Shown piece after piece: positions 24,612 through 38,874 of a stretch of DNA of 64,000 bases. How positions within the stretch are numbered: position 1 is the stretch's first letter; every line of letters starts with the position of its first letter. The notes under the pieces were generated by a model. It made no database searches and was not told the DNA's origin. It saw only the letters and a list, made by a program, of their open reading frames with translations. Made by a program: the position numbers and the translations under genes. The stretch comes from Sedimentisphaerales bacterium (GTDB lineage: Bacteria > Planctomycetota > Phycisphaerae > Sedimentisphaerales > UBA12454), in NCBI GenBank assembly GCA_049518795.1, contig JBEKRK010000001.1, forward strand, positions 583,506 to 647,505, in the 5' to 3' direction.

Positions 24612-26246
24612 TTAAGCTGAAACCGGTGTCAGATGACGGCTTATAACCTTAACAAGATTATTTTTGTCAGTTGTTTTTGAGATATATTCGTCACAGCCGG
24701 CGGAAAGGCTTTGCTTCCTTTCGTCCTCTTCTATATCGGAAGTTATCACTATTATTGGTGTTTCCACTCTAAAGCTTCGCAACCTTTTCACAGCGGCAAA
24801 GTCGTTCATCTCCGGCATCTGCACATCCATAAAAATCAATTCAAAATGCTGCTTTTTAACTGCTTCGATTGCTTCGAGCCCATTGGCTGCAAGCGTTACG
24901 ACAAAGCCCAATTCTTCAAGTAGCGTCTTTATCGATGCCTGGCTCGGCCGGCAGTCTTCAGCAACAAGCACTCTACCGGAAAACTCGACCCGCAGATTAT
25001 CCTGTCCGGCCGCAAGCTCTTCATCAGATATTTCGTTTTGTTCGTTTTCGACCGTATTCAGCGGTATGGTAAGTCTGAATATTGAGCCTTTTGACAGTTC
25101 GCTCTCGACGCTTATATCTCCTCCCATCAGAACTGCGATTTGTTTTGTTATTGTCAATCCCAGTCCTGTCCCGCCATATTTGCGCGTCATACTGCCGTCC
25201 GCCTGAGTAAACGCCTCAAAAATAGCATTGAGTTTTTCTGCCGGTATTCCAATACCCGTATCAAAAACTGCAAATTCTAAAAACGGTTTGCCGTCCTTTT
25301 CTATTTGCTGAGCTGTAACTTTAACATATCCCTGTTCAGTGAATTTTAAGGCATTACTTACAAGATTAAAGAGACACTGCCGCAGTTTCACGAGGTCTGT
25401 AATGATCATATGCGGCACATTGTCTGCACACTCAACTATGAACTGGAGCTGTTTATTTCTCGCGGTAGGCATCATCAGCGATTCGACATTAGCCAATACA
25501 GCCCTTATGTTACATTCAATATTCTCTGTCTCCATCTGGCCGGCCTCGATTTTTGAAAAATCAAGAATATCGTTAATCAGTTGCAGCAGATGTTTGCCGC
25601 TGTCAAGAATCATTTTTATGTATTCTTTTTGCTGCAGCGCCAACGGTTCTGCTGTAAGGACTTCGCTGAAGCCGATGATGGCATTCATAGGTGTTCTTAT
25701 TTCATGACTTATATTGGCCAGGAACTGACTTTTAGCAGCATTGGCTCTTTCAGCCTCGGCGGCCATTTCTTTTGCGGTTGTTGTAGCCTTAATCAGTCTT
25801 GCGTTTATATGTTCAAGCTCATTTTTCGTTTCAATGAGGCCGGCTTTTGTTTTTCTCCTTTCAATAGCATATCTTATTGTCCGCACTAAGGTATATTCAA
25901 GTCCCTCACCTTTTATCAGGTAATCTTCAGCGCCGTTGCGTATGGCCTCAAGACCCATATTCTCGTCGTTAAGCCCTGTAAGCACGACGATAGGAATATC
26001 AGGAACAGCATCGAAAACCCTTTGTACGGTTTCCATTCCCCTGCTGTCGGGAAGATTTAAATCGAGAAGAATAACGTCATATTTATTATTGGCAAGTTTT
26101 TCAAGAGATTCTGTAATTGTCTGCGCAGAATCTCCTTTGAACTTTACCAGATTAGCCGCCTTTGTCAGGACAATATCGACAAGCTTTCTGTCCAGTTCGT
26201 CATCGTCAACTACTAATACATTTACTGACTTGTCTGTCTGGCTCAT
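24612..26246 (-). CDS. Cytoplasmic hybrid histidine kinase (REC-HisKA-HATPase-REC)
   Basis: N-terminal receiver (LLDLNLPD), FLANISHEIRTPMN, NLVSNALKFT, DTGIGI, GGTGLGL; C-terminal receiver (FMDVQMP). Confidence 0.93.
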   Translation of the reverse strand: MSQTDKSVNVLVVDDDELDRKLVDIVLTKAANLVKFKGDSAQTITESLEKLANNKYDVILLDLNLPDSRGMETVQRVFDAVPDIPIVVLTGLNDENMGLEAIRNGAEDYLIKGEGLEYTLVRTIRYAIERRKTKAGLIETKNELEHINARLIKATTTAKEMAAEAERANAAKSQFLANISHEIRTPMNAIIGFSEVLTAEPLALQQKEYIKMILDSGKHLLQLINDILDFSKIEAGQMETENIECNIRAVLANVESLMMPTARNKQLQFIVECADNVPHMIITDLVKLRQCLFNLVSNALKFTEQGYVKVTAQQIEKDGKPFLEFAVFDTGIGIPAEKLNAIFEAFTQADGSMTRKYGGTGLGLTITKQIAVLMGGDISVESELSKGSIFRLTIPLNTVENEQNEISDEELAAGQDNLRVEFSGRVLVAEDCRPSQASIKTLLEELGFVVTLAANGLEAIEAVKKQHFELIFMDVQMPEMNDFAAVKRLRSFRVETPIIVITSDIEEDERKQSLSAGCDEYISKTTDKNNLVKVISRHLTPVSA

Positions 26247-26682
26247 AACTTGAACGCCTGCAAATGGTAAACCAATAATCTGTTAAGGTTTGCATTACTT
26301 CCTGAAAATCGGTGAGACTTACAGGTTTTTTGATATATCCGGCGGCCTGTAATCTGAAACTTTCGAGAATGTCCTTATCGGAATCGCTCGTAGTGAGGAT
26401 AACGACAGGTATTGCCTCAAATTGCGGGTCGGCTTTTATCTGTCTGAGGAATTCCTTGCCTCCCATACCGGGCATATTCAAATCAAGCAGAATAAGGTCC
26501 GGCAGAATATCCTTATTTTCCGGCGTCTTATTCTTTTTGAGGTAGCATAGAGCTTCTTCAGCACTGGATAATACCACAGGAATATTGGAAAGTCTTTGTT
26601 CCTTAAGCGACATTCTTATAAGTTTTTGGTCACCAAGGTCATCCTCTATCAGCATTATCGTAACCGGTTTATAGATATCCAT
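26206..26682 (-). CDS. Single-domain response regulator (Rcp1-like)
   Basis: IEDD, LILLDLNMPGMGG, VILTTSDS, AAGYIKKP. ATG at 26682 chosen from its GGGGA RBS (track start 26727). Confidence 0.9.
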   Translation of the reverse strand: MDIYKPVTIMLIEDDLGDQKLIRMSLKEQRLSNIPVVLSSAEEALCYLKKNKTPENKDILPDLILLDLNMPGMGGKEFLRQIKADPQFEAIPVVILTTSDSDKDILESFRLQAAGYIKKPVSLTDFQEVMQTLTDYWFTICRRSSYEPDRQVSKCISS

Positions 26683-26723
26683 TTTAAGTTCCCCATCAAA
26701 TTGATAAACTTCATTGCCGCCAA

Positions 26724-27167
26724 TCAAACTTTCACTACCGCTGAAGCTAAAAACCAGTAGCGGGTCATTTTTTTAACCACCTCATTAAACTCTTCCGGCA
26801 CAGCGGACTTCTGTATATATCCCGCTGCCTGTAAACGATAGCAGTCCTGGACATCGGTTTCCGAATCTGAGGTTGTAACCACAACAACTGGAATAGCACA
26901 CAATTCGTCATCTGCCTTGATTTCCCTTAAGAATTCCTTGCCGCCCATTCCCGGCATATTCAAATCAAGAAGTATTAAACAAGGCTTTTGATATTGTTCC
27001 GGAGCTTCTTTGCACATTTGAAGATAACTCATTGCTGCTTCTCCGGCAGGTGAAATCATTAGTTTCACACCATATTCCTGGTTCATAATTGCCGCTTTAA
27101 TCAGCTTTTGATCTCCAGGGTCATCCTCAATAATGAGAATCAGCAGTTCTTTTTTATCGCTTACCAT
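26724..27167 (-). CDS. Single-domain response regulator (Rcp1-like)
   Basis: IEDD, LILLDLNMPGMGG, VVTTSDS, AAGYIQKS. ATG at 27167 chosen from its AAGGGGG RBS (track start 27206). Confidence 0.9.
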   Translation of the reverse strand: MVSDKKELLILIIEDDPGDQKLIKAAIMNQEYGVKLMISPAGEAAMSYLQMCKEAPEQYQKPCLILLDLNMPGMGGKEFLREIKADDELCAIPVVVVTTSDSETDVQDCYRLQAAGYIQKSAVPEEFNEVVKKMTRYWFLASAVVKV

Positions 27168-27405
27168 ATCAGCCCCCTTATTCTCACAAATCTTTAACTT
27201 CTCCATAGCTGTGATTGCAGTCCATCCGTCGCCGGTTCAGTTTTAACCGACACCGTAAATAAAAATTGGACTTCTGTTGGGACTCAGATATTAAAACTAT
27301 TATCATTTTCACTTATTATTATCGAAAAATTCCGCACATTACTGAACATTCCCCAAACTTGTCTTATAAATTGTCCAATATTGCACGATTAACCCTATTT
27401 ACTTT

Positions 27406-29739
27406 TTAAAAATATTTATTACCGGACTTGTCTGCTACCCCATCCTTATTCTCTGCCGCAGCAACAGCTGATTTTTCTGCGATGGGCATTGTGAACCAGA
27501 ACGTAGAGCCTTTATCCGGCTGAGATTCGACACCGATTTTCCCGCCGTGACGCTCCACTATTTTCTTGCATACTGCAAGACCAATGCCTGTTCCCTCATA
27601 TTCATCACGCGAATGCAGGCGTTTGAACATTGTAAATATCGCACCCTGAAATTCCGGCTTAATACCTATACCATTATCTGTAACTTCTATCCTGACCATA
27701 CCATCAGACGCGGGCTTGCTTGTTATGATTATACGTGGAATATTGCCCTTCTTCTGATACTTGACGCCGTTTGCGATAAGGTTCTGCATAAGCTGTCTAA
27801 TCTGGGCAGGGTCAGCCTCAACACAGGGCAGCGATTGTGACTCGATAGTTACCTGTTTCTCTTCAATCAGCACGGCAAGTTCGAGCTGCTGCAGTTGTGT
27901 GACTATCTCATTAAGATCGACACCTTGCGAAGGGTGCGCCTGTGTGCTTACTCTCGAATAAACAAGAAGTCCTTCTATCATCTTTGTCATTCGCTGCGCG
28001 CCATCTATCATAAACTTAAGATTTTCAGCATCATCACCTGCAAGTTTGCCTTTGAGCGAGCTTCCCAGCATAGCGCCAAAAGCGGTAATCTTCCGCAATG
28101 GCTCACGCAAATCATGCGATGCTATATAGACAAAATTCTTCATCTCCTTATTGGTCTCTTCAAGCTCTGCTACGGTGTTTTCAAGGTCCCGATTGAGCCT
28201 CTTCATCATTTCTTCTGCCTCTTTCTGGCGGGTAATATCTATATCTGAGCCTCTGTAGCCGACAAGATTACCATCAATATCAAGTATAGGCACTCCGCTT
28301 GTTATCAACCATACAATCCGGCCGTCTTTGTGCACATTCGCATTCAGAAACCCCTTGAAAGACTGTTTTTCTGCAAACGCTGCGAATGCTGATTTTTTTA
28401 ATTCGTCTCTCTCTTTATCTGTAAACAGGTCGTAGAAATATTTTTTGCCGACAATTTCCTCCGGCCTATAGCCGAGCAGGTCTATAACGATAGAACTTGA
28501 ATAAGTATATAATCCATTCGCGTCAACTTCCCATACCCATTCGGAAGCATTGCTGACAATTTCCTGGAACCTTTTTTCGCTCTCCCTAAGATTGCCCTCT
28601 ATCTTCTTGCGCTCGCCAATTTCATTAATTAAGGAATTACGCGAAACTGTTGTTCTGTTTAAGTTCTCAACCATCTGATTGAAACTCGCAGCCAACTGCC
28701 CTATTTCACTCCGTGATTCAACTTCTATTCTTGTATCCATCCTGCCTTCGCCAATCTTTATGGCAGCGTCTCGTAAATCTATTATCGGTTTTGTCAGTCT
28801 TTTTGACAGATAAACGCCGGCTATGATAGCTAAGGTAAAACTCAGAAGTATCGTAAATGCCGTCAGTTTAATCGCCGTAATGACAGGTTGGTATGCCTCA
28901 CGGACTGGCAGCTCAACCACAACCGCCCAGTCAGGCATACCAAGCGGCGCATAACTGCTTACCACATAATTACCCTGAATACCCTTTGCTATACCGGCCT
29001 CATCGGAGACAGGAGATTTGTCGCTGCCTGTAAATTCAGACACCTCCCCTATATAGGCTAAATTCTCTCCCTTCAAAATGCGGCTGATATCGTCAAAAGC
29101 TATTAAATCCCCCTGTCTGTCAACCACATAAGCCAGGCCTGTTTTGCCAACTTTTATTGAACCCACTAAATCCCACATAAATTTCAGGTTCACCTCGGCC
29201 AGCAACACACCTCTAAAGTCGCGGAAAACATCCATAATCGGAACAGCCATTATTACCATAGGCTCGCTTGTTATTTCATCTATATATACCGAGCTGATAT
29301 ACATTTTGCCCTGATTTGTTTGAGAAAACAGTTCACTCTTTTTTTGCCCTGTTAATTTAATTGACAGTAAACTTGATAAACGAGAATCTCTCATCAATTC
29401 CTGTTCCTGCGAGTCAAACATAACCAGCTGGCGAAAGGCCGGTTCCAAACCCAGCAATTTTTCCAGAACTAATTTTTGCTCCTGCCCTGAAAAAGCTGTC
29501 AGATTGCCAAGGCCGGCCGCCGTTCTTAACATGTCAAATTCCCTCTGAATAAAACTCTTTACAGTATTGGCCGCCTCCTTGGCAACAAGCTGCTGCTGAC
29601 TGGCAATAATATGACGTTGGGTCTTGAAGTTAAAATATATCTGCAGGCTATTAGCAATCAGCAGGACTACCGCACTCAAAGCTAAAAAAGCAATGGCTAA
29701 TGTAACGGTCAAACTACGAAATTTTTTTATTTTTACCAT
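27406..29739 (-). CDS. Membrane sensor histidine kinase (Cache-HAMP-PAS-HisKA-HATPase)
   Basis: Two TM helices around a Cache-like region (YISSVY..., [14 protein letters not shown]), HAMP ([13 protein letters not shown]), PAS ([11 protein letters not shown]...DIT), [11 protein letters not shown] and GTGIGLA. Confidence 0.92.
27488..28179. repeat. 692-bp near-identical duplicated kinase core, copy 1
   Basis: Matches 34511-35202 with one synonymous mismatch seen (27541 C vs 34564 T). Confidence 0.95.
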
Positions 29740-29754
29740 TCCGAATCTCGATAC

Positions 29755-30771
29755 TTAACGAATTATTTCACCTGCCCTGCTTAATAAACCTTCAGGCACA
29801 TTCAGCCCCAGTTTCTGGGCCGCTTTGTAATTGAACTGGAAGAAACCTTCGGATGAGACAACCGGGATTGTGCCAGCTGATATACCTTTTAATATTTTGT
29901 CAGCCAGAAACGCAGCCTGTCTGCCTACAGGAATGTTTTGAGGCGTCAATCCAAAAACAGATTCATATCCTCCCACTGACATTAAGGCGCCGCCAATCGG
30001 AATCTTATGTTCATCCGCAAATTTACCCAGCACCACAAAATTTTCAGGCGTCACACCAAGAGGCTCAACCATTATCAGGATAGCATCTGTGTCATTGACA
30101 CCGACTGATTTAGCCCGCTCCTGCAATTCAGCCTCAAGTTCTGTCGCATTATTGGCGGGAACTTCTAACAGCGTTATACCTGAGGATGCAGCCATCGGGC
30201 GCAATATCTCTAACTGGCTGGCTACAATAGGATAACCTCGCTGATAGGGTAGCCACATTCGCTTGGTCTGCGGCACCAACTCGTGCATAATCTCAAAACG
30301 CTTGGCCGCAAGGTCCGGGCCAGGCCAGCGCACACCGGTGATATTCCCGCCCGGATGGCGCACAGTCTCGATCAGATTGGTACCCTCTATATTCGCAATC
30401 GCAAAAACCACTGGGATGTCTGTTCCTTGTGTGGCCGCCTTTGCCTCCTGGGACGCCTCGGTGGGAAACACAAAAATTAAATCAACCTTATCAGCCACAA
30501 ATTTCTTGAGGATGTTCTTGTAGGCAACCAAGTCAATGTTTGTTTTCTGCAGGTCATAGACGACATTTTTGCCCTTGACATAGCCTAACTCGGTCATCCT
30601 GGCTTTGAAGCCGTCCGCTGCACTGGCAAAAAAATCCAGGCCGGACAGAATGCCCACCCGATATACCTTCTGCTGCGGCGCTTTTTTACCACAACTGTTC
30701 AGAAACACACAAAACACAACTAAAAAGGTTGCAAACAGCGTGAGCCATTTGAAACAAATTTTCCTGCACAT
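29755..30771 (-). CDS. ABC_sub_bind (COG2984/TrpX-like) periplasmic binding lipoprotein 1
   Basis: Lipobox FLNSC; VDLIFVFPT, PVVFA, HPGGNITGV and NYKAAQKLGLNVP. Confidence 0.88.
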   Translation of the reverse strand: MCRKICFKWLTLFATFLVVFCVFLNSCGKKAPQQKVYRVGILSGLDFFASAADGFKARMTELGYVKGKNVVYDLQKTNIDLVAYKNILKKFVADKVDLIFVFPTEASQEAKAATQGTDIPVVFAIANIEGTNLIETVRHPGGNITGVRWPGPDLAAKRFEIMHELVPQTKRMWLPYQRGYPIVASQLEILRPMAASSGITLLEVPANNATELEAELQERAKSVGVNDTDAILIMVEPLGVTPENFVVLGKFADEHKIPIGGALMSVGGYESVFGLTPQNIPVGRQAAFLADKILKGISAGTIPVVSSEGFFQFNYKAAQKLGLNVPEGLLSRAGEIIR

Positions 30772-30801
30772 AATTATCTATTACCTTTCTTTCAATAACG
30801 T

Positions 30802-31809
30802 CTAACGAATTATTTCATCTGCCTTGCTTAATAAACCTTCAGGAACATTCAATCCCAGTTCCTGAATTACCTTGTAGTTCAGCCGCAGATGAGCTTCAGG
30901 TGTAACCACCGGGATTGTACCGGCAGGCATACCCTTGAGAATTTTGTCAACCAGAGACGCCGCCAGCTTACCCTGTTCAACATTGTCAGGAACAAAACTA
31001 AACATAGCCCCCAAGTCCGCGGTAAAGTCCATTCCGCCGCCGATTGGGATTTTGTGCTTGGCCGCAAAATCGTGAATTGCCCCAAAACCGTCAGGTGAAT
31101 TATTAAGAATATCCGGCATAATCAATATTGCATCAATACCTATATCGTTTGCTTCGTCACGTTTTTTCAAAGCCGCACGAAGCTCATCCAAATTATTTAC
31201 AGGCTCTTCCACCAGCGTGATATTCGCAGCCGAGGCCGCTGAATGCAATCCCTCAAGTGCGCTTGACGCATTAGGATAATTCCGGTCGTATGCCAATAAA
31301 ACTCGTTTTGTTTGAGGCACCAGCTCACACAAGAACTCAAAACGCTTAACCGTCAACTCCGGCCCAGGAAAGCGAACACCGGTAATATTTCCACCCGGCT
31401 GGCGCACGGTATTTATGAGGTTATTTCCTTCTATTCCGGCCATAGCAAAAACTACTGGAATATTAGTCCCCTCAGCAATTGCCTTGGCTGTTACGGCCGT
31501 CTCGGTTGGAAATGCGAAAATTAAATCAACTTTATCTTTAACAAATTCCTTAACGACTCGTTTTTCCTCCTCAGGGTTTGCGTTCACTTTCTGAAAGTCA
31601 TAAACAATGTTTTTACCCTCTATATAGCCTAATTCAGCCATTTTGGTTTTGAGGCCGTCTGCTATATTGGCAAAAGGTTCTGCTCCGGATACGATGCCCA
31701 CGTGACAAATTTTCGGCCTTTTGCTGCAGTTAGTCAAAAATATACAAGACATAATTAACATTGTCAGGGATACTATTTGCAAAAATTTAATTTTTTTGCA
31801 TATCTTCAT
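30802..31809 (-). CDS. ABC_sub_bind periplasmic binding lipoprotein 2
   Basis: Lipobox-like FLTNC; VDLIFAFPT, QPGGNITGV and LNYKVIQELGLNVP. Confidence 0.88.
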   Translation of the reverse strand: MKICKKIKFLQIVSLTMLIMSCIFLTNCSKRPKICHVGIVSGAEPFANIADGLKTKMAELGYIEGKNIVYDFQKVNANPEEEKRVVKEFVKDKVDLIFAFPTETAVTAKAIAEGTNIPVVFAMAGIEGNNLINTVRQPGGNITGVRFPGPELTVKRFEFLCELVPQTKRVLLAYDRNYPNASSALEGLHSAASAANITLVEEPVNNLDELRAALKKRDEANDIGIDAILIMPDILNNSPDGFGAIHDFAAKHKIPIGGGMDFTADLGAMFSFVPDNVEQGKLAASLVDKILKGMPAGTIPVVTPEAHLRLNYKVIQELGLNVPEGLLSKADEIIR

Positions 31810-31824
31810 CTTAATGTCTTTCTT

Positions 31825-32823
31825 TTAACGAATAATTTCATCTGCCCTGCTTAATAAGCCTTCAGGCACATTCAGTCCCAGTTTCTGGGCCGCTTTGTAA
31901 TTGAACTGGAAGAAACCTTCGGATGAGACAACAGGAATTGTGCCTGCCGGAATACCTTTCAGGATTTTGTCAGCAAGAATCGCAGCCTGCCTGCCTGTGC
32001 TGTCAAGATTAACATTTATGCCAAAAACAGAGTCATAACCATCTACCGACATTAAGGCGCCGCCGACGAGAATTTTATGTTCAGCGGCAAATTTACCGAA
32101 CACCGCAAAAGCGTCAGCTGTCACGCCAAGAGGTTCGGCAATTATCAGCATAGCATCTATACCGATGTCAGCCGATTTAGCTCTTGCCTGCAAATCAGCC
32201 TGAACTTCTGCTGCATTGGAGGCGGGGCATTCTACCAAAGTTACACCTGCAGCCTCGGCCATCGGATACAACACTCTCAACTGGCTGGATACAATAGGGT
32301 AACCTCGCTGATAGGGTATCCATATTCGCTTAATCTGCGGTGCTAACTCACGCATAATCTCAAATCGCTTGGCCGCAAGGTCGGGGCCGGGGTAACGAAC
32401 GCCGGTGATATTGCCGCCCGGCCGGCGAATACTCTCAACCAGATTAGTGTCTTCTATGTTGGCAAAAGCAAAAAGCACAGGAATGTTTGTCCCCTGCGCG
32501 GCCTTCTTGGCAGCCATTGATACCTCGGTGGGAAACGTAAAAATAAGGTCAACTTTGTCTTTTACGAATTGCTTAAGGATTTGTTCTTCCCTGGCAGGTT
32601 CAAAGTTCGTCCTCTGTATGTCATAAACGATGTTTTTCCCCTCAATGTAACTTAAGTCGGTCATCCTGGCTTTGAAACTATCCGGTATAGCGGCAATATA
32701 ATCCAGCCCGCATAGAATACCCACTCGATATACCTTCTGCTGTGTCGCTTTTTTGCCGCAGCTGCTTAAAAGCAGACAAAATATAATTAAATAGAACGCA
32801 ATATTTTTTATTTTTGTTTTCAT
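31825..32823 (-). CDS. ABC_sub_bind periplasmic binding lipoprotein 3
   Basis: Lipobox LLSSC; VDLIFTFPT, RPGGNITGV and NYKAAQKLGLNVP. Confidence 0.88.
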   Translation of the reverse strand: MKTKIKNIAFYLIIFCLLLSSCGKKATQQKVYRVGILCGLDYIAAIPDSFKARMTDLSYIEGKNIVYDIQRTNFEPAREEQILKQFVKDKVDLIFTFPTEVSMAAKKAAQGTNIPVLFAFANIEDTNLVESIRRPGGNITGVRYPGPDLAAKRFEIMRELAPQIKRIWIPYQRGYPIVSSQLRVLYPMAEAAGVTLVECPASNAAEVQADLQARAKSADIGIDAMLIIAEPLGVTADAFAVFGKFAAEHKILVGGALMSVDGYDSVFGINVNLDSTGRQAAILADKILKGIPAGTIPVVSSEGFFQFNYKAAQKLGLNVPEGLLSRADEIIR

Positions 32824-32835
32824 AACGGTATTCCC

Positions 32836-34269
32836 TTAAAAGGTATATTCGATTGAAATTTGACTAAAATAAGCCGGGTCTCTGTCCGGTTCGGCATAAT
32901 AATTGCCCGGCACAAAATATTCGAACTGATAATAAGCTAAAAGATTCTTTGTAACGTTATATTTAAGTAATAACGAGAATAATTGGCCTCTGAATTTTCC
33001 GCCGCTCGACCAGCTCGGCCCGCCTGGATTAGTGGTTCCGCCAAGAGGATTTTCATTGGCAAACAGCAGGTGATAATCTGTGCTAATCTGGATTTTATCG
33101 GTGGGACAGAAAGAATGGCCCAGATTCAATCTTGCAAGGTTTGTGCTTGCCCCGGGTCCATTCTCATACCAATAAGCATAAGTATTTATCACACTCCATT
33201 GCGGCCACTTCCCCCAGAGGTTATCGAACCCTTCGTTTCTGCCTGAGCCGGGCTTGTCTCCGGAAAGGTATTCGAAAGTTCCGTGAAGCACATTTTTGTA
33301 TTTATCGTTGAAATGATATTCAAGCGTGTCTATGGTTCCGAACGCCCGCAGGCTGTGGCCATCTTTATTGCCGGTCTGCACTGCGCCTTCGGCCCTGTAT
33401 TTCCAGTGCTCGCTCTTGAAAAGCGGGCCTGAAAGTGCCCCGCCTAATGTATAAATTTCATCTCCTACGGAACCAGATGCGACAGGAGTATCGTGTTTAT
33501 AAATAAAATAACCTTCGAGCTGCAGATTGGGACGGGATTTATCCGTATAATAAACTATTGCTCCTGTCTGGTCTGTATTATTTACAAGTTTATGTCCATC
33601 TGAAAACGGCCTTAGCCACGCCGAAGAATCGGCCTTCTGGTCTATAAAAATCAAATCGAGCGTTTTATCTTTTTGCAATTCATAGGTAAAACGCAGTGCG
33701 TCGAAAAATATTGTTCTTCCTTCGTCATTATTTGTTCCTTCAAGAACAAGCCAGCCTGTTCCGAAGATGATGTCCTGGCGGCCCACAACCATCGTCAGGG
33801 GCATACCGCCGAGATTTCGGACGGTAAGATTAAACCTGTCCCAAACGATTTCATCGAAATCAACCTCTTTTTGGCGGCTGTCAGGCCCATCCCAGGTTCT
33901 GAATTCCCAAACCCATCTGTGATTAAATTCGATGTCATCTGTGATTTTCGTTTTGGTTCCCCATCTGAACCTGTTTAGAGTGTAATTCCAATTGCTCAAT
34001 CCTGAATCGTCGTTGAACCTGTCAATGTTCCATGCGTTGAACCACTGCCATTTCAAGTCAGCCTCCATACTAAGCCAGGGAGTCGGATTATGGAACCAGT
34101 CGATAAATTTATCCATTCCATTTTTATTTTCTCCGGCGGGCTGAGACGATATTAACTGTTCTACTTTTTGTGATGCCTGCTGTGTAGCTTCCTGAGCAGC
34201 AGCAATTGCCGCAAAAAGTATCACAGCCGATGCAATAAACACATAAATTTTCGGCATATTATGCACCAT
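32836..34269 (-). CDS. Alginate-export (AlgE-like) outer-membrane beta-barrel porin
   Basis: Signal peptide, alternating beta-strand pattern, VGRQDIIFGTGWLV, FEYLSGD and terminal Phe (IEYTF). Confidence 0.75.
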   Translation of the reverse strand: MVHNMPKIYVFIASAVILFAAIAAAQEATQQASQKVEQLISSQPAGENKNGMDKFIDWFHNPTPWLSMEADLKWQWFNAWNIDRFNDDSGLSNWNYTLNRFRWGTKTKITDDIEFNHRWVWEFRTWDGPDSRQKEVDFDEIVWDRFNLTVRNLGGMPLTMVVGRQDIIFGTGWLVLEGTNNDEGRTIFFDALRFTYELQKDKTLDLIFIDQKADSSAWLRPFSDGHKLVNNTDQTGAIVYYTDKSRPNLQLEGYFIYKHDTPVASGSVGDEIYTLGGALSGPLFKSEHWKYRAEGAVQTGNKDGHSLRAFGTIDTLEYHFNDKYKNVLHGTFEYLSGDKPGSGRNEGFDNLWGKWPQWSVINTYAYWYENGPGASTNLARLNLGHSFCPTDKIQISTDYHLLFANENPLGGTTNPGGPSWSSGGKFRGQLFSLLLKYNVTKNLLAYYQFEYFVPGNYYAEPDRDPAYFSQISIEYTF

Positions 34270-34449
34270 TGTTTCTCCTATTTTTTAATCCGTTAAAATA
34301 GGATGCTTTTTGCGCAAATCTACTTGCATACATTCTTTAGGAATAATCGACATAAATAAAATGGGGATTGATTCAACAGTATCTATACACACAAAAACAA
34401 TTGGAATTGAAGCCAGATTAAATATTATCGGTCGTTTTTGACGGTCAAT

Positions 34450-37400
34450 TTATGAACTATATGAAGTTTGAACTATATTCTTATCAGCTGTTACTGCTTT
34501 AGTTTCCGGTATTGTGAACCAGAACGTAGAGCCTTTATCCGGCTGAGATTCGACACCGATTTTTCCGCCGTGACGCTCCACTATTTTCTTGCATACTGCA
34601 AGACCAATGCCTGTTCCCTCATATTCATCACGCGAATGCAGGCGTTTGAACATTGTAAATATCGCACCCTGAAATTCCGGCTTAATACCTATACCATTAT
34701 CTGTAACTTCTATCCTGACCATACCATCAGACGCGGGCTTGCTTGTTATGATTATACGTGGAATATTGCCCTTCTTCTGATACTTGACGCCGTTTGCGAT
34801 AAGGTTCTGCATAAGCTGTCTAATCTGGGCAGGGTCAGCCTCAACACAGGGCAGCGATTGTGACTCGATAGTTACCTGTTTCTCTTCAATCAGCACGGCA
34901 AGTTCGAGCTGCTGCAGTTGTGTGACTATCTCATTAAGATCGACACCTTGCGAAGGGTGCGCCTGTGTGCTTACTCTCGAATAAACAAGAAGTCCTTCTA
35001 TCATCTTTGTCATTCGCTGCGCGCCATCTATCATAAACTTAAGATTTTCAGCATCATCACCTGCAAGTTTGCCTTTGAGCGAGCTTCCCAGCATAGCGCC
35101 AAAAGCGGTAATCTTCCGCAATGGCTCACGCAAATCATGCGATGCTATATAGACAAAATTCTTCATCTCCTTATTGGTCTCTTCAAGCTCTGCTACGGTG
35201 TTCCGCATCTCTTCGTTGAGTTTTTTCAGTTTCTCCTCTGCCTTCTTGCGATCGGTGACGTTGCGGAATATCCCCATCACATATTCGGTTTGGTTGATAG
35301 TCACCGTACTTGCGTTTATGCTCACGGATATTACCTGGCCGTCCTTCCTTACGCACGGCAGGTCCGCGGTTATCTTGGTCCCTGAGGCTTGAGCCTCGAA
35401 CTCGGCGATCACCTGCTCGAGCGCCTCTTTCGGGTGGATATCGGCCACGCTCATCCGCGTAAGTTCCTCCTCGCTGTAGCCCAGCATCCTGCATATCGCC
35501 GGGTTGGCGTATCTGAACTTCTTTGTCGTGACATCGGCTATGAGTATCCCATCAATGTTCGCCTTAAACAGACTCTTGTATCGCTCCTCGCTCTCCCGCA
35601 GCGCCTCTTCCGCCCGCTTGCGCTCGGTGATGTCCTGGCCTTGGGCAATGATGGCCACAGCAGTTTTGCCGTCTGGCGCGAAGATCGTGGCAGAGTTCCA
35701 GAGGACGGTACTGACAGAGCCGTCGATATGCAGGATGCTGATCTCTACGGCCTTCCATCGTTCGCCGGTCAGTGTCTTCCGGATGATATTCATCGTGTTT
35801 TCCACGAGGGCCGGCGGGAAGAGAAGATCGAGAGGCTTGCCGATAACATCGCCGGCCTTTCTTCCGGTGAGGGACTCGAAGGCATGGTTGAACTGGCTGA
35901 TCCGGAATTGCGGATCCCAGACGATAATGGGGGCATTCGCATAGGTGATGAGGTTCTGGAGGTACGCGGTGGTCTCCCGCAATGCCTCCTCCGCCTGCTT
36001 GCGCTCAGTGATGTCGCGGAATATCCCCATCATACATTCGGTTTGGCCTATTGTCATCGTACCTGCGTTTATGCTCACGAATATCACCTGGCCGTCCTTC
36101 CTTACGCACGGCAAGTCCTTTGAGGTTATCTTGGCCCCGGAAACTCGGGCTTCGAAATCGGCGGACGCCTGCTCGAGCGACTCTTTCGGGTGGATGTCGG
36201 CCAAGCCCAACCGCGTAAATTCCTCCTCGCTGTAGCCCAGCATCCTGCACATCGCCGGGTTGGCGTACCTGAACTTCTTTGTCGTGGGATCGGCTATGAG
36301 TATCCCGTCAATGTTCGCCTTAAACAGACTCTTGTATCGCTCCTCGCTCTCCCGCAGCGCCTCTTCCGCTCTCTTGCTCTCGGTGATGTCGCGGAAAATT
36401 CCCATCGTTCCTGCTGGATTGTCTTTGTCATCTTTAACAATAGAGACAGTTAATAAAACAGTAAATTTTTCCTTATTTTTCCTAATACAGATTGTTTCTC
36501 CCGACCATTTGCCTTTATTTTTTACCTCCTCTACAATATTATTTGCATCTTTTGGATCTGCTGTAAATTGAGATACTTTTAATTTTAGTATCTCCTCGTG
36601 CGAATAACCAAAGACCTTAATAGAAGACTCATTGGCATTAGTAACATTGCCGTTTATATCAGTCAGTATAAAGCTATCGTAAGCATTTTGAACAGCGTTT
36701 GAGAATATTTTTATCTTCTCCTCCGTCTCCTTGCGCTCGGTGATGTCTATAAATATACCGTTTGCATATTTTATGCCGTTCTCTTCATAAACCGACATTG
36801 CTCTATCGCGCAGCCAAATCCACTTTCCATCTTTTCTCTTGATCCGATATTCAATGTCAAACAAATCTTCTTTTTCGAATAATGCTGTAAAACTCTTTTT
36901 CGTCCTTTCTATGTCATCAGGATGAATCCTGCCAAACCAAATTTCATTTCCGCCTTCAAATATTTCCTCAGGCGTATATCCATAAATTTTCTTTACATTT
37001 TGACTTATAAAGACGGTTCTGCCCTTTAGGTCAGTCGTCCAAACCACATCTGGAATATTTTGCACCAAGGAACGATATTTTCCCTCTGATTCTTTTAAGA
37101 TCGCCTCCATCTTCTTGCGTTCGGTGATGTCCCAGAAAATGCCTAATATTCCTATGACGTTTCCTTGCTCATCTTTGATAGGTGTCTTGACTGTTTGGAC
37201 AATAAATTCCTTTCCTTCCCGAATATATTTCTCCTCGACTTCTTCTGCTTTTCCGGATTCCATAATTCTTTTGTCGTCAGCTTTGTATTTCTCAGCCAAT
37301 TCCGTTGGGTAAAATTCGTAGTCTGTTTTTCCAACGATTTCCTCGGCCTTAATCTTTAAAGCTCTGGCGTAATTCTCATTGCAGGAAAGGTAAACAGAGT

Positions 37401-37485
37401 TTCCATCTTTAAGAAATATGTTCTGAGGCAGGTTATCAAGTAGCGTTCTGTATATATTTTCATCACCCCGCAACTTCTGTATCAT
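34450..37485 (-). CDS. Cytoplasmic multi-PAS sensor histidine kinase
   Basis: About six PAS/PAC units ending in DIT(E/D)R-like motifs, then the same [11 protein letters not shown]...GTGIGLA core as 27406-29739. Confidence 0.93.
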   Translation of the reverse strand: MIQKLRGDENIYRTLLDNLPQNIFLKDGNSVYLSCNENYARALKIKAEEIVGKTDYEFYPTELAEKYKADDKRIMESGKAEEVEEKYIREGKEFIVQTVKTPIKDEQGNVIGILGIFWDITERKKMEAILKESEGKYRSLVQNIPDVVWTTDLKGRTVFISQNVKKIYGYTPEEIFEGGNEIWFGRIHPDDIERTKKSFTALFEKEDLFDIEYRIKRKDGKWIWLRDRAMSVYEENGIKYANGIFIDITERKETEEKIKIFSNAVQNAYDSFILTDINGNVTNANESSIKVFGYSHEEILKLKVSQFTADPKDANNIVEEVKNKGKWSGETICIRKNKEKFTVLLTVSIVKDDKDNPAGTMGIFRDITESKRAEEALRESEERYKSLFKANIDGILIADPTTKKFRYANPAMCRMLGYSEEEFTRLGLADIHPKESLEQASADFEARVSGAKITSKDLPCVRKDGQVIFVSINAGTMTIGQTECMMGIFRDITERKQAEEALRETTAYLQNLITYANAPIIVWDPQFRISQFNHAFESLTGRKAGDVIGKPLDLLFPPALVENTMNIIRKTLTGERWKAVEISILHIDGSVSTVLWNSATIFAPDGKTAVAIIAQGQDITERKRAEEALRESEERYKSLFKANIDGILIADVTTKKFRYANPAICRMLGYSEEELTRMSVADIHPKEALEQVIAEFEAQASGTKITADLPCVRKDGQVISVSINASTVTINQTEYVMGIFRNVTDRKKAEEKLKKLNEEMRNTVAELEETNKEMKNFVYIASHDLREPLRKITAFGAMLGSSLKGKLAGDDAENLKFMIDGAQRMTKMIEGLLVYSRVSTQAHPSQGVDLNEIVTQLQQLELAVLIEEKQVTIESQSLPCVEADPAQIRQLMQNLIANGVKYQKKGNIPRIIITSKPASDGMVRIEVTDNGIGIKPEFQGAIFTMFKRLHSRDEYEGTGIGLAVCKKIVERHGGKIGVESQPDKGSTFWFTIPETKAVTADKNIVQTSYSS
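34511..35202. repeat. 692-bp near-identical duplicated kinase core, copy 2
   Basis: Matches 27488-28179 at an offset of 7023. Confidence 0.95.
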
Positions 37486-37728
37486 TTTAATTCCCTTTAA
37501 TCATTAAACTCATTCATGAATTCCACTTGGAAGCAGCTCTCTCGACTGTATCTATGAAAATCGGCAGAAATAAGTCGGTAATTGAAGAAATAGTACTTTT
37601 TCAAAAAAAATGACCCGAAATCGACATCCGTCAAATAATTATCGGTCGTTAGCAAACGTGTTTACAAAGATGGGATTTTTTTGCACAAACCTCTTGCCAG
37701 ATTGATTTGCCGGATTATATTGGAATCT

Positions 37729-38874
37729 ATGCTTACCACTGCAAAACCAGACACGTTTGAAAAGCTCGAAATTCTAAGCCGTGATTCGCAGTATGACCTT
37801 ACCTGCGCCTGCGGCACCGATAAATCCGGACATCGGACACGGGGAAACAACGGCAAATGGATTTATCCGGTAACTCTTCCCAACGGCGGCAGCACTATTC
37901 TGTTCAAAACGCTTATTTCAAATGTCTGTTCGAGCGATTGCAAATACTGTCCCCTTCGACAGGATGCCGACGTTTCGCGATGCACGCTTAATTGTGAAGA
38001 AACTGTCAGGACATTTATGGATTATTACAACAGAGGCGAGGTCTTCGGCCTGTTTCTTTCCAGCAGCGTCCTCGGCTCGGCTGATGCAACAATGGAAAAA
38101 TTGATTGCTCCCGCTGAAGTCCTTCGTAAAAAGTATGGATTCAGGGGCTATATTCACCTGAAAGTCCTGCCAGGCTCAAGCCCTGCCGCTATAGAAAAAG
38201 CAGTTTCAGTTGCCAATGCCGTTTCGCTGAATATCGAAACGCCGGGAAAGGAATTTCTCAAAAAATTGTCGAATAAAAAAGATTTTTTAAAGGATATTGT
38301 CGAGCCTATGAAACTTATCAGCCGGCTTACCAGCCAGAGTTGCCGAAGAGTTAAACAAACCACCCAGTTTATCGTTGGTGCCGCCAGCGAAACCGACAGG
38401 CAAATTGTCGATTACACAGCCGCACTTTATAACAGGCTCAACCTAAGCAGGGTTTATTTTTCAGCCTACCAGCACCCCAATCCGGAAGTAAACATCGATT
38501 CCCAGCAATCATTTATTCGGGAACACAGGTTATATCAGGTTGATTTTCTGCTCCGTAAATATGGATTTGAGCAGTCTGATATTGTATGCGACAGTTTAGG
38601 TCTCCTTTCAACAGAAAAAGACCCAAAAGAAGTCTGGGCTATAAATCATCCGGAATGTTTCCCTATAAGTGTAAACACAGCAACTAAATACAAGCTGTTA
38701 CGCGTGCCGGGGCTTGGCCCTAAAGCAGTTGAAACTATACTAAATAAGAGAAAATTAGCAAAAATTAATTCAATTGACGATATTGATAAAGTAACGAAAA
38801 ACCTGCTAAAAGCCGTAAAATACCTCGATTTTGGCGGCATCACTAAAAATAAGAGATATTTGTTCAATTTTTAA
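37729..38874 (+). CDS. Putative DNA modification/repair radical SAM protein with HhH motif (TIGR03916-like)
   Basis: NVCSSDCKYC (CX3CX2C), GLFLSSSV, GYIHLKVLPG, RVYFSAY, REHRLYQVDFLLRKYGF and LLRVPGLG. Likely ATG at 37729 (track start TTG 37681). Confidence 0.88.
   Translation: MLTTAKPDTFEKLEILSRDSQYDLTCACGTDKSGHRTRGNNGKWIYPVTLPNGGSTILFKTLISNVCSSDCKYCPLRQDADVSRCTLNCEETVRTFMDYYNRGEVFGLFLSSSVLGSADATMEKLIAPAEVLRKKYGFRGYIHLKVLPGSSPAAIEKAVSVANAVSLNIETPGKEFLKKLSNKKDFLKDIVEPMKLISRLTSQSCRRVKQTTQFIVGAASETDRQIVDYTAALYNRLNLSRVYFSAYQHPNPEVNIDSQQSFIREHRLYQVDFLLRKYGFEQSDIVCDSLGLLSTEKDPKEVWAINHPECFPISVNTATKYKLLRVPGLGPKAVETILNKRKLAKINSIDDIDKVTKNLLKAVKYLDFGGITKNKRYLFNF

Follow-up and report, generated by a model that had tools for sequence, protein, structure and literature searches.

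How does one bacterial genome come to hold two sensor kinases whose sensory parts are unrelated and whose catalytic cores are the same almost to the last base? The question arises in a 64,000-nt window of the genome of a Sedimentisphaerales bacterium, an uncultivated planctomycete of the class Phycisphaerae (positions 583,506 to 647,505 of contig JBEKRK010000001.1, assembly GCA_049518795.1, here called G000). In this window, a membrane kinase with a Cache sensor (P0001, the Cache kinase) and a soluble kinase with an array of PAS domains (P0002, the PAS kinase) share a 692-bp stretch that encodes the transmitter. We consider it probable that the whole transmitter was copied very recently and in one direction, from the Cache kinase to the PAS kinase, likeliest by gene conversion, at a locus where sensors are shuffled, and that the two kinases would share their wiring.

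The shared core and its borders

Both kinase genes lie on the minus strand. By Pfam, the Cache kinase carries dCache_1 (residues 45-276), HAMP (311-361), PAS (390-503), HisKA (533-598) and HATPase_c (643-754), and the PAS kinase carries six PAS domains, HisKA (774-839) and HATPase_c (884-995). These architectures agree with the first-pass annotation, which had set a membrane Cache sensor against a cytoplasmic PAS array. HisKA (PF00512) scores 36.1 and 34.6 bits against a gathering threshold of 26.9, with the H-box SHDLREPL present, and HATPase_c (PF02518) scores 101.5 and 103.1 bits against a threshold of 26.4, with the N, G1, F and G2 boxes found in both proteins. By domains and motifs, both are class I HisKA-type sensor histidine kinases, and their activity is predicted.

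Our description of the repeat comes from a base-by-base comparison at an offset of 7023. Positions 27488-28179 equal positions 34511-35202, making a direct repeat of 692 bp in which 691 bases are identical (99.86%). The sole mismatch is C at 27541 and T at 34564; it gives a GGG codon in one copy and GGA in the other (Gly733 of the Cache kinase, Gly974 of the PAS kinase), is therefore silent, and sits 54 nt inside the 3' border of the repeat. The same coordinates and a single silent difference had been reported at first pass, and the comparison bears them out.

At the protein level, residues 521-750 of the Cache kinase equal residues 762-991 of the PAS kinase. The shared part begins 21 residues N-terminal of the phospho-acceptor histidine and stops at the last strand of the catalytic and ATP-binding (CA) domain, GSTFWFT. 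The repeat thus spans the whole transmitter of both kinases, i.e., the dimerisation and histidine phosphotransfer (DHp) domain plus CA. Both borders are sharp, with ungapped identity falling to background within a few bases outside. On the 5' (linker) side, about 55 nt retain a weak similarity of about 58% between the copies, and the 3' flanks cannot be aligned.

Exactly two copies of the core exist in G000 (8 contigs, 2.9 Mb), where the runner-up match is 73% over 301 nt, and a self-BLAST of the genome ranks the core first for identity among repeats longer than 200 bp. Chance is ruled out as the source of the identity. What we see is a tract of near-identity, synonymous sites included, between the diverged flanks of two paralogs in one genome, which is one of the marks of interlocus conversion.

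Core identity within one genome is not the normal state in these bacteria. In relatives, within-genome pairs of the same core clade are 62-75% identical in amino acids (five comparisons), and orthologous cores of congeners are 74-78.5% identical to the G000 core in nucleotides. Recent copying is needed because about 230 third positions are identical between the two G000 cores, and selection at the protein level cannot freeze such positions.

Direction of the copy

Which of the two genes owned the core? We built a maximum-likelihood tree of 26 kinase cores with IQ-TREE, and it places the two G000 cores as the sister group of the P0122 core; P0122 is the one full-length ortholog of the Cache kinase that was found. 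Comparing P0122 with the Cache kinase gives an amino-acid identity of 92% over the core and 83.5% over the sensor, without any break at the repeat border. Kinases whose first PAS domain (PAS1) is of the type found in the PAS kinase (P0003, P0008, P0016 and P0024) form a separate, well-supported clade in the same tree. Among themselves, these PAS1-type kinases are 94-96% identical in PAS1 and 93-94% in the core; the PAS kinase of G000 matches them at 93-97% in PAS1 but at only 80-82% in the core. The two parts of the PAS kinase thus have incongruent affinities: its sensor groups with P0003, P0008 and P0016, and its core with the Cache-kinase lineage of P0122. Beyond these kinases, a metagenome scan with the PAS kinase as query returned only more distant loci and no closer relative, and both G000 kinases are singletons in a collection of 5.8 billion proteins.

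The change of affinity can be placed on the DNA. The sensor part of the PAS kinase is 93-98% identical in DNA to that of P0003, the PAS kinase of a congener (metagenome contig L038), and the identity then drops from about 93% to about 77%. The change point has a likelihood-ratio statistic of 57 and a 2-lnL interval of 35191-35309, with the repeat border at 35202 inside it. Third-position GC of the PAS kinase also falls, from 74% to 46%, at 35202/35203. In the Cache kinase, it is 46.5% in the core and 44-45% in the rest of the gene, i.e., continuous across the border. From the core tree, the mismatch between PAS1 and core identities, the change point against L038 and the jump in third-position GC, we infer that the core is of the resident Cache-kinase type and that the PAS kinase was the recipient.

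The sensor of the PAS kinase is itself a mosaic. The block holding its fourth to sixth PAS domains (PAS4 to PAS6) has a GC content of 55-57% and a third-position GC of 74-77%, compared with 43% and about 45% for the G000 genome, and on account of this third-position difference it looks imported. PAS4 and PAS6 (windows 35233-35634 and 35986-36390) are 87-91% identical to each other in nucleotides, each is 91-93% identical to the last PAS domain of P0003, and the PAS5 between them is unrelated. Farther upstream, a 475-nt stretch at PAS1 is 98.1% identical to L038 against a G000-L038 background of about 75%, a difference that indicates a recent exchange between lineages. At the other end of the gene, the 20 codons after the core have a GC content of 31% and a third-position GC of 10%; this AT-rich tail has the look of DNA that was once non-coding.

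A 745-aa metagenome protein from JGI, P0007, carries GC-rich modules of the PAS5 and PAS6 types (58% and 84% aa identity) on an unrelated core (38% aa). Kinases of this type are a possible source family for the imported PAS cassettes.

Conversion and its alternatives

The reading that we prefer starts from two paralogous sensor-kinase genes in direct orientation, 7 kb apart, as source and target. The recipient's sensor part would already have been a patchwork of PAS cassettes, some of them recently swapped with other species of the genus. The most likely route would be ectopic gene conversion of the RecA type, with a tract extending to the limits of alignable homology, and a less likely one would be duplicative recombination that built the second gene. 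Under either route, the resident core was copied into the PAS kinase.

Several observations weigh against conversion as we have described it. Conversion presupposes two complete paralogs with homology at both ends; the 5' flank has such homology, but nothing homologous to the PAS kinase's 3' flank was found. More generally, the 3' flanks of the two copies have no detectable homology and the tail of the PAS kinase is non-coding-like, so an illegitimate or duplicative junction fits this end better than a classical conversion endpoint does. If the old core of the PAS kinase was P0003-like, the identity before conversion was about 77% in nucleotides, which is low for a RecA-dependent event. The direction leans partly on P0122, which may merely come from the closest species. 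Finally, if the assembly is based on short reads, differences in the interior of the repeat may have been merged, making 99.86% an upper bound on a true identity that would be slightly lower. Two further results concern the surroundings of the PAS kinase: the 74 nt between its core and a 13-nt repeat downstream match nothing in the G000 genome or in any locus compared, and none of the relatives has both kinase genes in the same positions.

The strongest alternative is a duplicative rearrangement, in which the second core was made while the two-gene arrangement was being built; we regard it as unlikely. It could have taken either of two routes. In one, a 7-kb unit (porin, three binding proteins, Cache sensor and core) was integrated by a Campbell-type event or duplicated in tandem via the core. 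In the other, an imported PAS array was fused to a duplicated core; a crossover within the conserved linker would then have made the 5' border, and an illegitimate junction the 3' one. The 3' border suits this explanation, since it adjoins non-coding-like sequence with no homology to any kinase tail. So does a 13-nt direct repeat, AACGACCGATAAT (operon sense), which flanks the PAS-kinase gene. Its downstream copy lies 13 nt past the stop codon and its upstream copy lies between the radical-SAM gene and the PAS kinase. In relatives, the motif occurs once, in the radical-SAM/porin intergenic region, and the outer flanks of the PAS-kinase gene, once joined, rebuild that region, being colinear with it in L038 and in the congener genome G003. 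The locus L053 likewise has the layout (radical-SAM gene, PAS1-type kinase, then the single-domain receiver RR1) that would be left if the two cores of G000 recombined, and its kinase has a tail resembling that of the G000 Cache kinase. A relative in ENA carries the porin, three binding proteins, a Cache kinase and a PAS kinase in a different order.

However, a duplicative origin requires at least two events with precisely placed end points. The 13-nt repeats are 3214 nt apart and the cores 7023 nt, and because of this disagreement we rejected an origin by one tandem duplication. If a Campbell integration had joined diverged cores, it would have left reciprocal chimeras rather than identical copies. 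The upstream junction, from the radical-SAM gene to a PAS1-type kinase, also occurs in L053 and is hence not new in G000, which also speaks against the simpler idea that the PAS kinase was newly inserted between the radical-SAM and porin genes.

Apart from their possible role in rearrangement, both AACGACCGATAAT copies overlap promoter-like -10 elements on the minus strand (TTGTAA-18-GATAAT at 37667-37638, and TTGACC-16-AATATT at 34448-34421, upstream of the porin gene). The conserved motif may be the operon promoter, doubled in G000.

We think it very unlikely that the repeat is an assembly artefact, i.e., that the true genome contains a single kinase, or cores that have diverged, and that a collapsed repeat node was threaded twice or strain variants were joined. 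In favour of an artefact, G000 is a metagenome-assembled genome, as are all the relatives, and a de Bruijn assembler can pass a simple loop twice and merge the differences inside it. At 54 nt from a border, the one difference that survives is near enough for k-mers to extend into unique sequence. However, the contig enters and leaves the repeat via four different unique flanks, all in frame, and this topology needs two copies. Nor would an assembler have merged cores that differed by more than a few percent. Independent sequences show both joins: P0122 has a Cache sensor on a core of this type, and P0003 has the PAS6-linker joined to its core at the same position. Three of the four flanks have homologs in relatives, and the 3' tail and flank of the PAS kinase match nothing. 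The assembly itself, with 8 contigs, the longest of 930 kb, and 16S and 23S genes in mid-contig, suggests that long reads were used.

Purifying selection holding old duplicates identical can draw on the core being better conserved than any other part of these kinases (92% against 83.5% aa in the comparison with P0122), but we reject it as having practically no chance of being right, since identity at synonymous sites (one difference in 692 nt) effectively refutes it and since congener cores and paralog pairs in relatives have diverged as far as they have.

Wiring, precedents and neighbourhood

Residues of the DHp domain set both partner choice and homodimer specificity. With identical surfaces for partner recognition and dimerisation, the two kinases are expected to address the same receivers: both should act on the same receiver or receivers, the most plausible candidates being RR1, RR2 and the REC domains of the neighbouring hybrid kinase, and they could also form heterodimers. 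A periplasmic signal (via the porin, binding proteins and Cache domain) and cytoplasmic signals (via the PAS domains) would then reach the same output. The first-pass annotation had proposed recent domain shuffling or gene conversion by which an outside and an inside signal would be wired to the same receivers, forming an OR gate. Its evolutionary part is well supported, given the 62-75% pairs in relatives, the grouping with P0122, the switch of closest relative at the border and the shuffling at this locus. Its crediting of the wiring to this event is probably misplaced in part, because the DHp helix after the histidine is nearly invariant in all kinases of the core clade in the genus, whatever their sensor. 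For that reason, convergence on the block of two receivers and a hybrid kinase is probably a general design of the locus that is older than the copy. Nor need the logic be OR: an identical DHp also allows heterodimers, and if an unstimulated kinase acts as a phosphatase, the logic would be different. The H-box reads HDLRE and not HDLRT, a point that bears on possible phosphatase activity.

The minus-strand gene order in G000 is PAS kinase, porin, three solute-binding proteins, Cache kinase, RR1, RR2 and hybrid kinase (Table 1). Neither the operon nor the conserved block includes an output domain. The C-terminal tail of the Cache kinase resembles the tails of receiver-adjacent kinases in relatives, and no ABC permease or ATPase gene lies near the three binding-protein genes (29755-32823).

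Table 1. Window positions of the repeat copies, the two kinases and neighbouring features
Feature	Position	Strand	Remark
Membrane sensor kinase P0001, 777 aa	27406..29739	-	TM (transmembrane segment), dCache_1, TM, HAMP, PAS, HisKA, HATPase_c
Soluble sensor kinase P0002, 1011 aa	34450..37485	-	six PAS, HisKA, HATPase_c; compositional and phylogenetic mosaic
Repeat copy 1, DHp+CA core of the dCache-HAMP-PAS kinase, aa 521-750 of P0001	27488..28179	-	putative donor-type copy
Repeat copy 2, DHp+CA core of the six-PAS kinase, aa 762-991 of P0002	34511..35202	-	putative recipient copy
Only difference between the copies	27541..27541	-	C (T at 34564), Gly synonymous
PAS4-PAS5-PAS6 block of P0002	35203..36400	-	foreign-looking composition
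PAS1 of P0002 plus 100 nt upstream	37111..37585	-	98.1% nt identical to congener L038
AACGACCGATAAT, downstream copy	34424..34436	-	13-nt direct repeat, past the P0002 stop codon
AACGACCGATAAT, upstream copy	37638..37650	-	radical-SAM/P0002 intergenic region
Porin-like outer-membrane protein (Alginate_exp)	32836..34269	-	Pfam; between the kinases, within the 7-kb repeat-bounded unit
Three tandem PF04392 (ABC_sub_bind) solute-binding proteins	31825-32823, 30802-31809, 29755-30771	-	Pfam
Conserved output block: RR1, RR2, hybrid kinase	24612..27206	-	Pfam; candidate shared phosphoryl acceptors
RR1, single-domain receiver	26724-27206	-	
RR2, single-domain receiver	26206-26727	-	
Hybrid kinase, REC-HisKA-HATPase_c-REC	24612-26246	-	
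Radical-SAM gene	37681-38874		divergent from the PAS kinase

The outer genes are syntenic in all congeners found: DAHP synthase, a PALP enzyme, signal peptidase, hybrid kinase, RR2 and RR1 make up one flank of the slot, and the radical-SAM gene lies at the opposite end. The block of RR1, RR2 and hybrid kinase is syntenic in every relative examined (loci including L017, L018, L020, L022, L038 and L053). Between RR1 and the radical-SAM gene, content and order differ in every relative. For example, L053 has a PAS1-type kinase alone; L038 has the porin, the four-PAS kinase P0003 and a 501-aa kinase; the genome G001 has one 668-aa kinase and three unrelated genes; G004 has two kinases, with the Cache kinase, binding proteins and porin elsewhere; and ENA contig ERZ1426815, the one with P0122, has the porin, three binding proteins, a Cache kinase of 770 aa and a PAS kinase of 825 aa. 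G003 has the porin, two binding proteins, a coreless 556-aa Cache-HAMP-PAS protein, a 180-aa protein and a 578-aa kinase. A map of the modules finds the same ones (PAS1, the 'RESEERYKSLF' PAS, the Cache-associated PAS, the N-type PAS, GAF, Cache and HAMP) in many orders on one core clade. As read from these sequences, the locus is a genus-wide hot spot at which sensor modules are recombined onto one clade of kinase cores.

A bolder reading makes the identical core a working part of a cassette system, which we offer as a speculation with rather low odds. The 'house' transmitter and the conserved PAS linkers would serve as a homologous handle by which sensor modules are excised, exchanged between species and re-inserted before a fixed output; the periplasmic block of G000 could be reversibly lost, and heterodimers would integrate signals from outside and inside within a single complex. 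The exchangeable modules would be the 7-kb block of porin, binding proteins and Cache sensor, the PAS arrays, and GAF and H-NOX-linked modules. The deletion product predicted from the direct repeats of G000 would match the architecture seen in L053.

How does the G000 pair compare with known systems? The classic case of ectopic (interlocus) gene conversion between bacterial paralogs is tufA/tufB of Salmonella. The two cases are alike in having near-identity that includes synonymous sites, between diverged flanks, and the probable one-way copy between dispersed paralogs of one chromosome would make the G000 pair, too, a case of concerted evolution of part of a gene. Unlike tufA/tufB, however, the G000 kinases are homogenised in the DHp+CA module only, their N-terminal parts are unrelated, the tract takes up all that can be aligned, no homology flanks its 3' end, and identity before the event would have been lower (about 77%, if the old core was P0003-like).

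Many-to-one pathways are also well known, such as KinA-KinE acting on Spo0F in Bacillus subtilis and LuxN/LuxQ/CqsS acting on LuxU in Vibrio harveyi. There, as would be the case here, different membrane and cytoplasmic sensors feed one acceptor, and the adjacent candidate first acceptors in G000 are single-domain receivers. In those systems, however, the cores have diverged and convergence is biochemically proven, whereas the G000 cores are identical and convergence is predicted. Their arrangement also differs in that the downstream partner in G000 is a REC-HisKA-HATPase-REC hybrid kinase, with no output domain in the operon.

Paralogous two-component pathways are reportedly insulated by divergence of the DHp residues for specificity and dimerisation, a view associated with Skerker in 2008, Ashenberg in 2011 and Capra in 2012. 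The G000 pair is the opposite: its kinases have all specificity residues in common, and throughout the core clade the DHp helix is nearly invariant. If shared wiring and heterodimers are true, it would be a natural pair of non-insulated paralogs, whereas other examples of that state come mostly from reconstructions.

By the usual account, a sensor kinase acquires a new input when its gene is duplicated and a sensor is then exchanged, and such events usually come to light long afterwards. Here the event is so recent (one silent change in 692 bases) that the borders of the copy can be read to the base, and they fall at the same points where protein engineers join foreign sensors to kinase cores. 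The congener loci, being in different states, form a small natural series of module recombination onto one core, with exchange between species included. The processes involved (gene conversion, domain shuffling and many-to-one signalling) are already established, and G000 is an unusually well-documented case of them. Our literature search returned no paper on conversion of a histidine-kinase core and only a general survey of domain shuffling.

That survey describes lineage-specific expansion of histidine kinases with shuffling of sensor domains, in which only 29.1% of recent duplicates retain their domain structure (Alm, Huang and Arkin 2006, PMC1630713). The G000 kinases resemble those expansions in that the closest paralogs share the kinase domain and usually not the upstream domains, membrane and soluble members occur together, and PAS repeats are of mixed origin. 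The survey dealt with diverged paralogs, unlike the G000 event at 99.86% nucleotide identity, and we have instead tracked one locus through several congeners, with interspecies module exchange visible as 98% identity against a 75% background.

Some smaller observations concern the neighbouring genes. In G003 (L017, G003:C9 9386-13484), the Cache-HAMP-PAS protein lacks a kinase core and ends in a coiled coil, and the core of the 578-aa kinase is 85% identical to the G000 core. The 180-aa protein beside them is H-NOX-like by eye, so the slot may host a gas-sensor-linked kinase. Across relatives, RR1 is far more variable (55-65% aa) than RR2 (71-80%). The PF04392 genes are mosaic as well: the first and third are 91% identical over their last 172 nt and 76-80% elsewhere, with the second more distant, which suggests partial gene conversion among them too.

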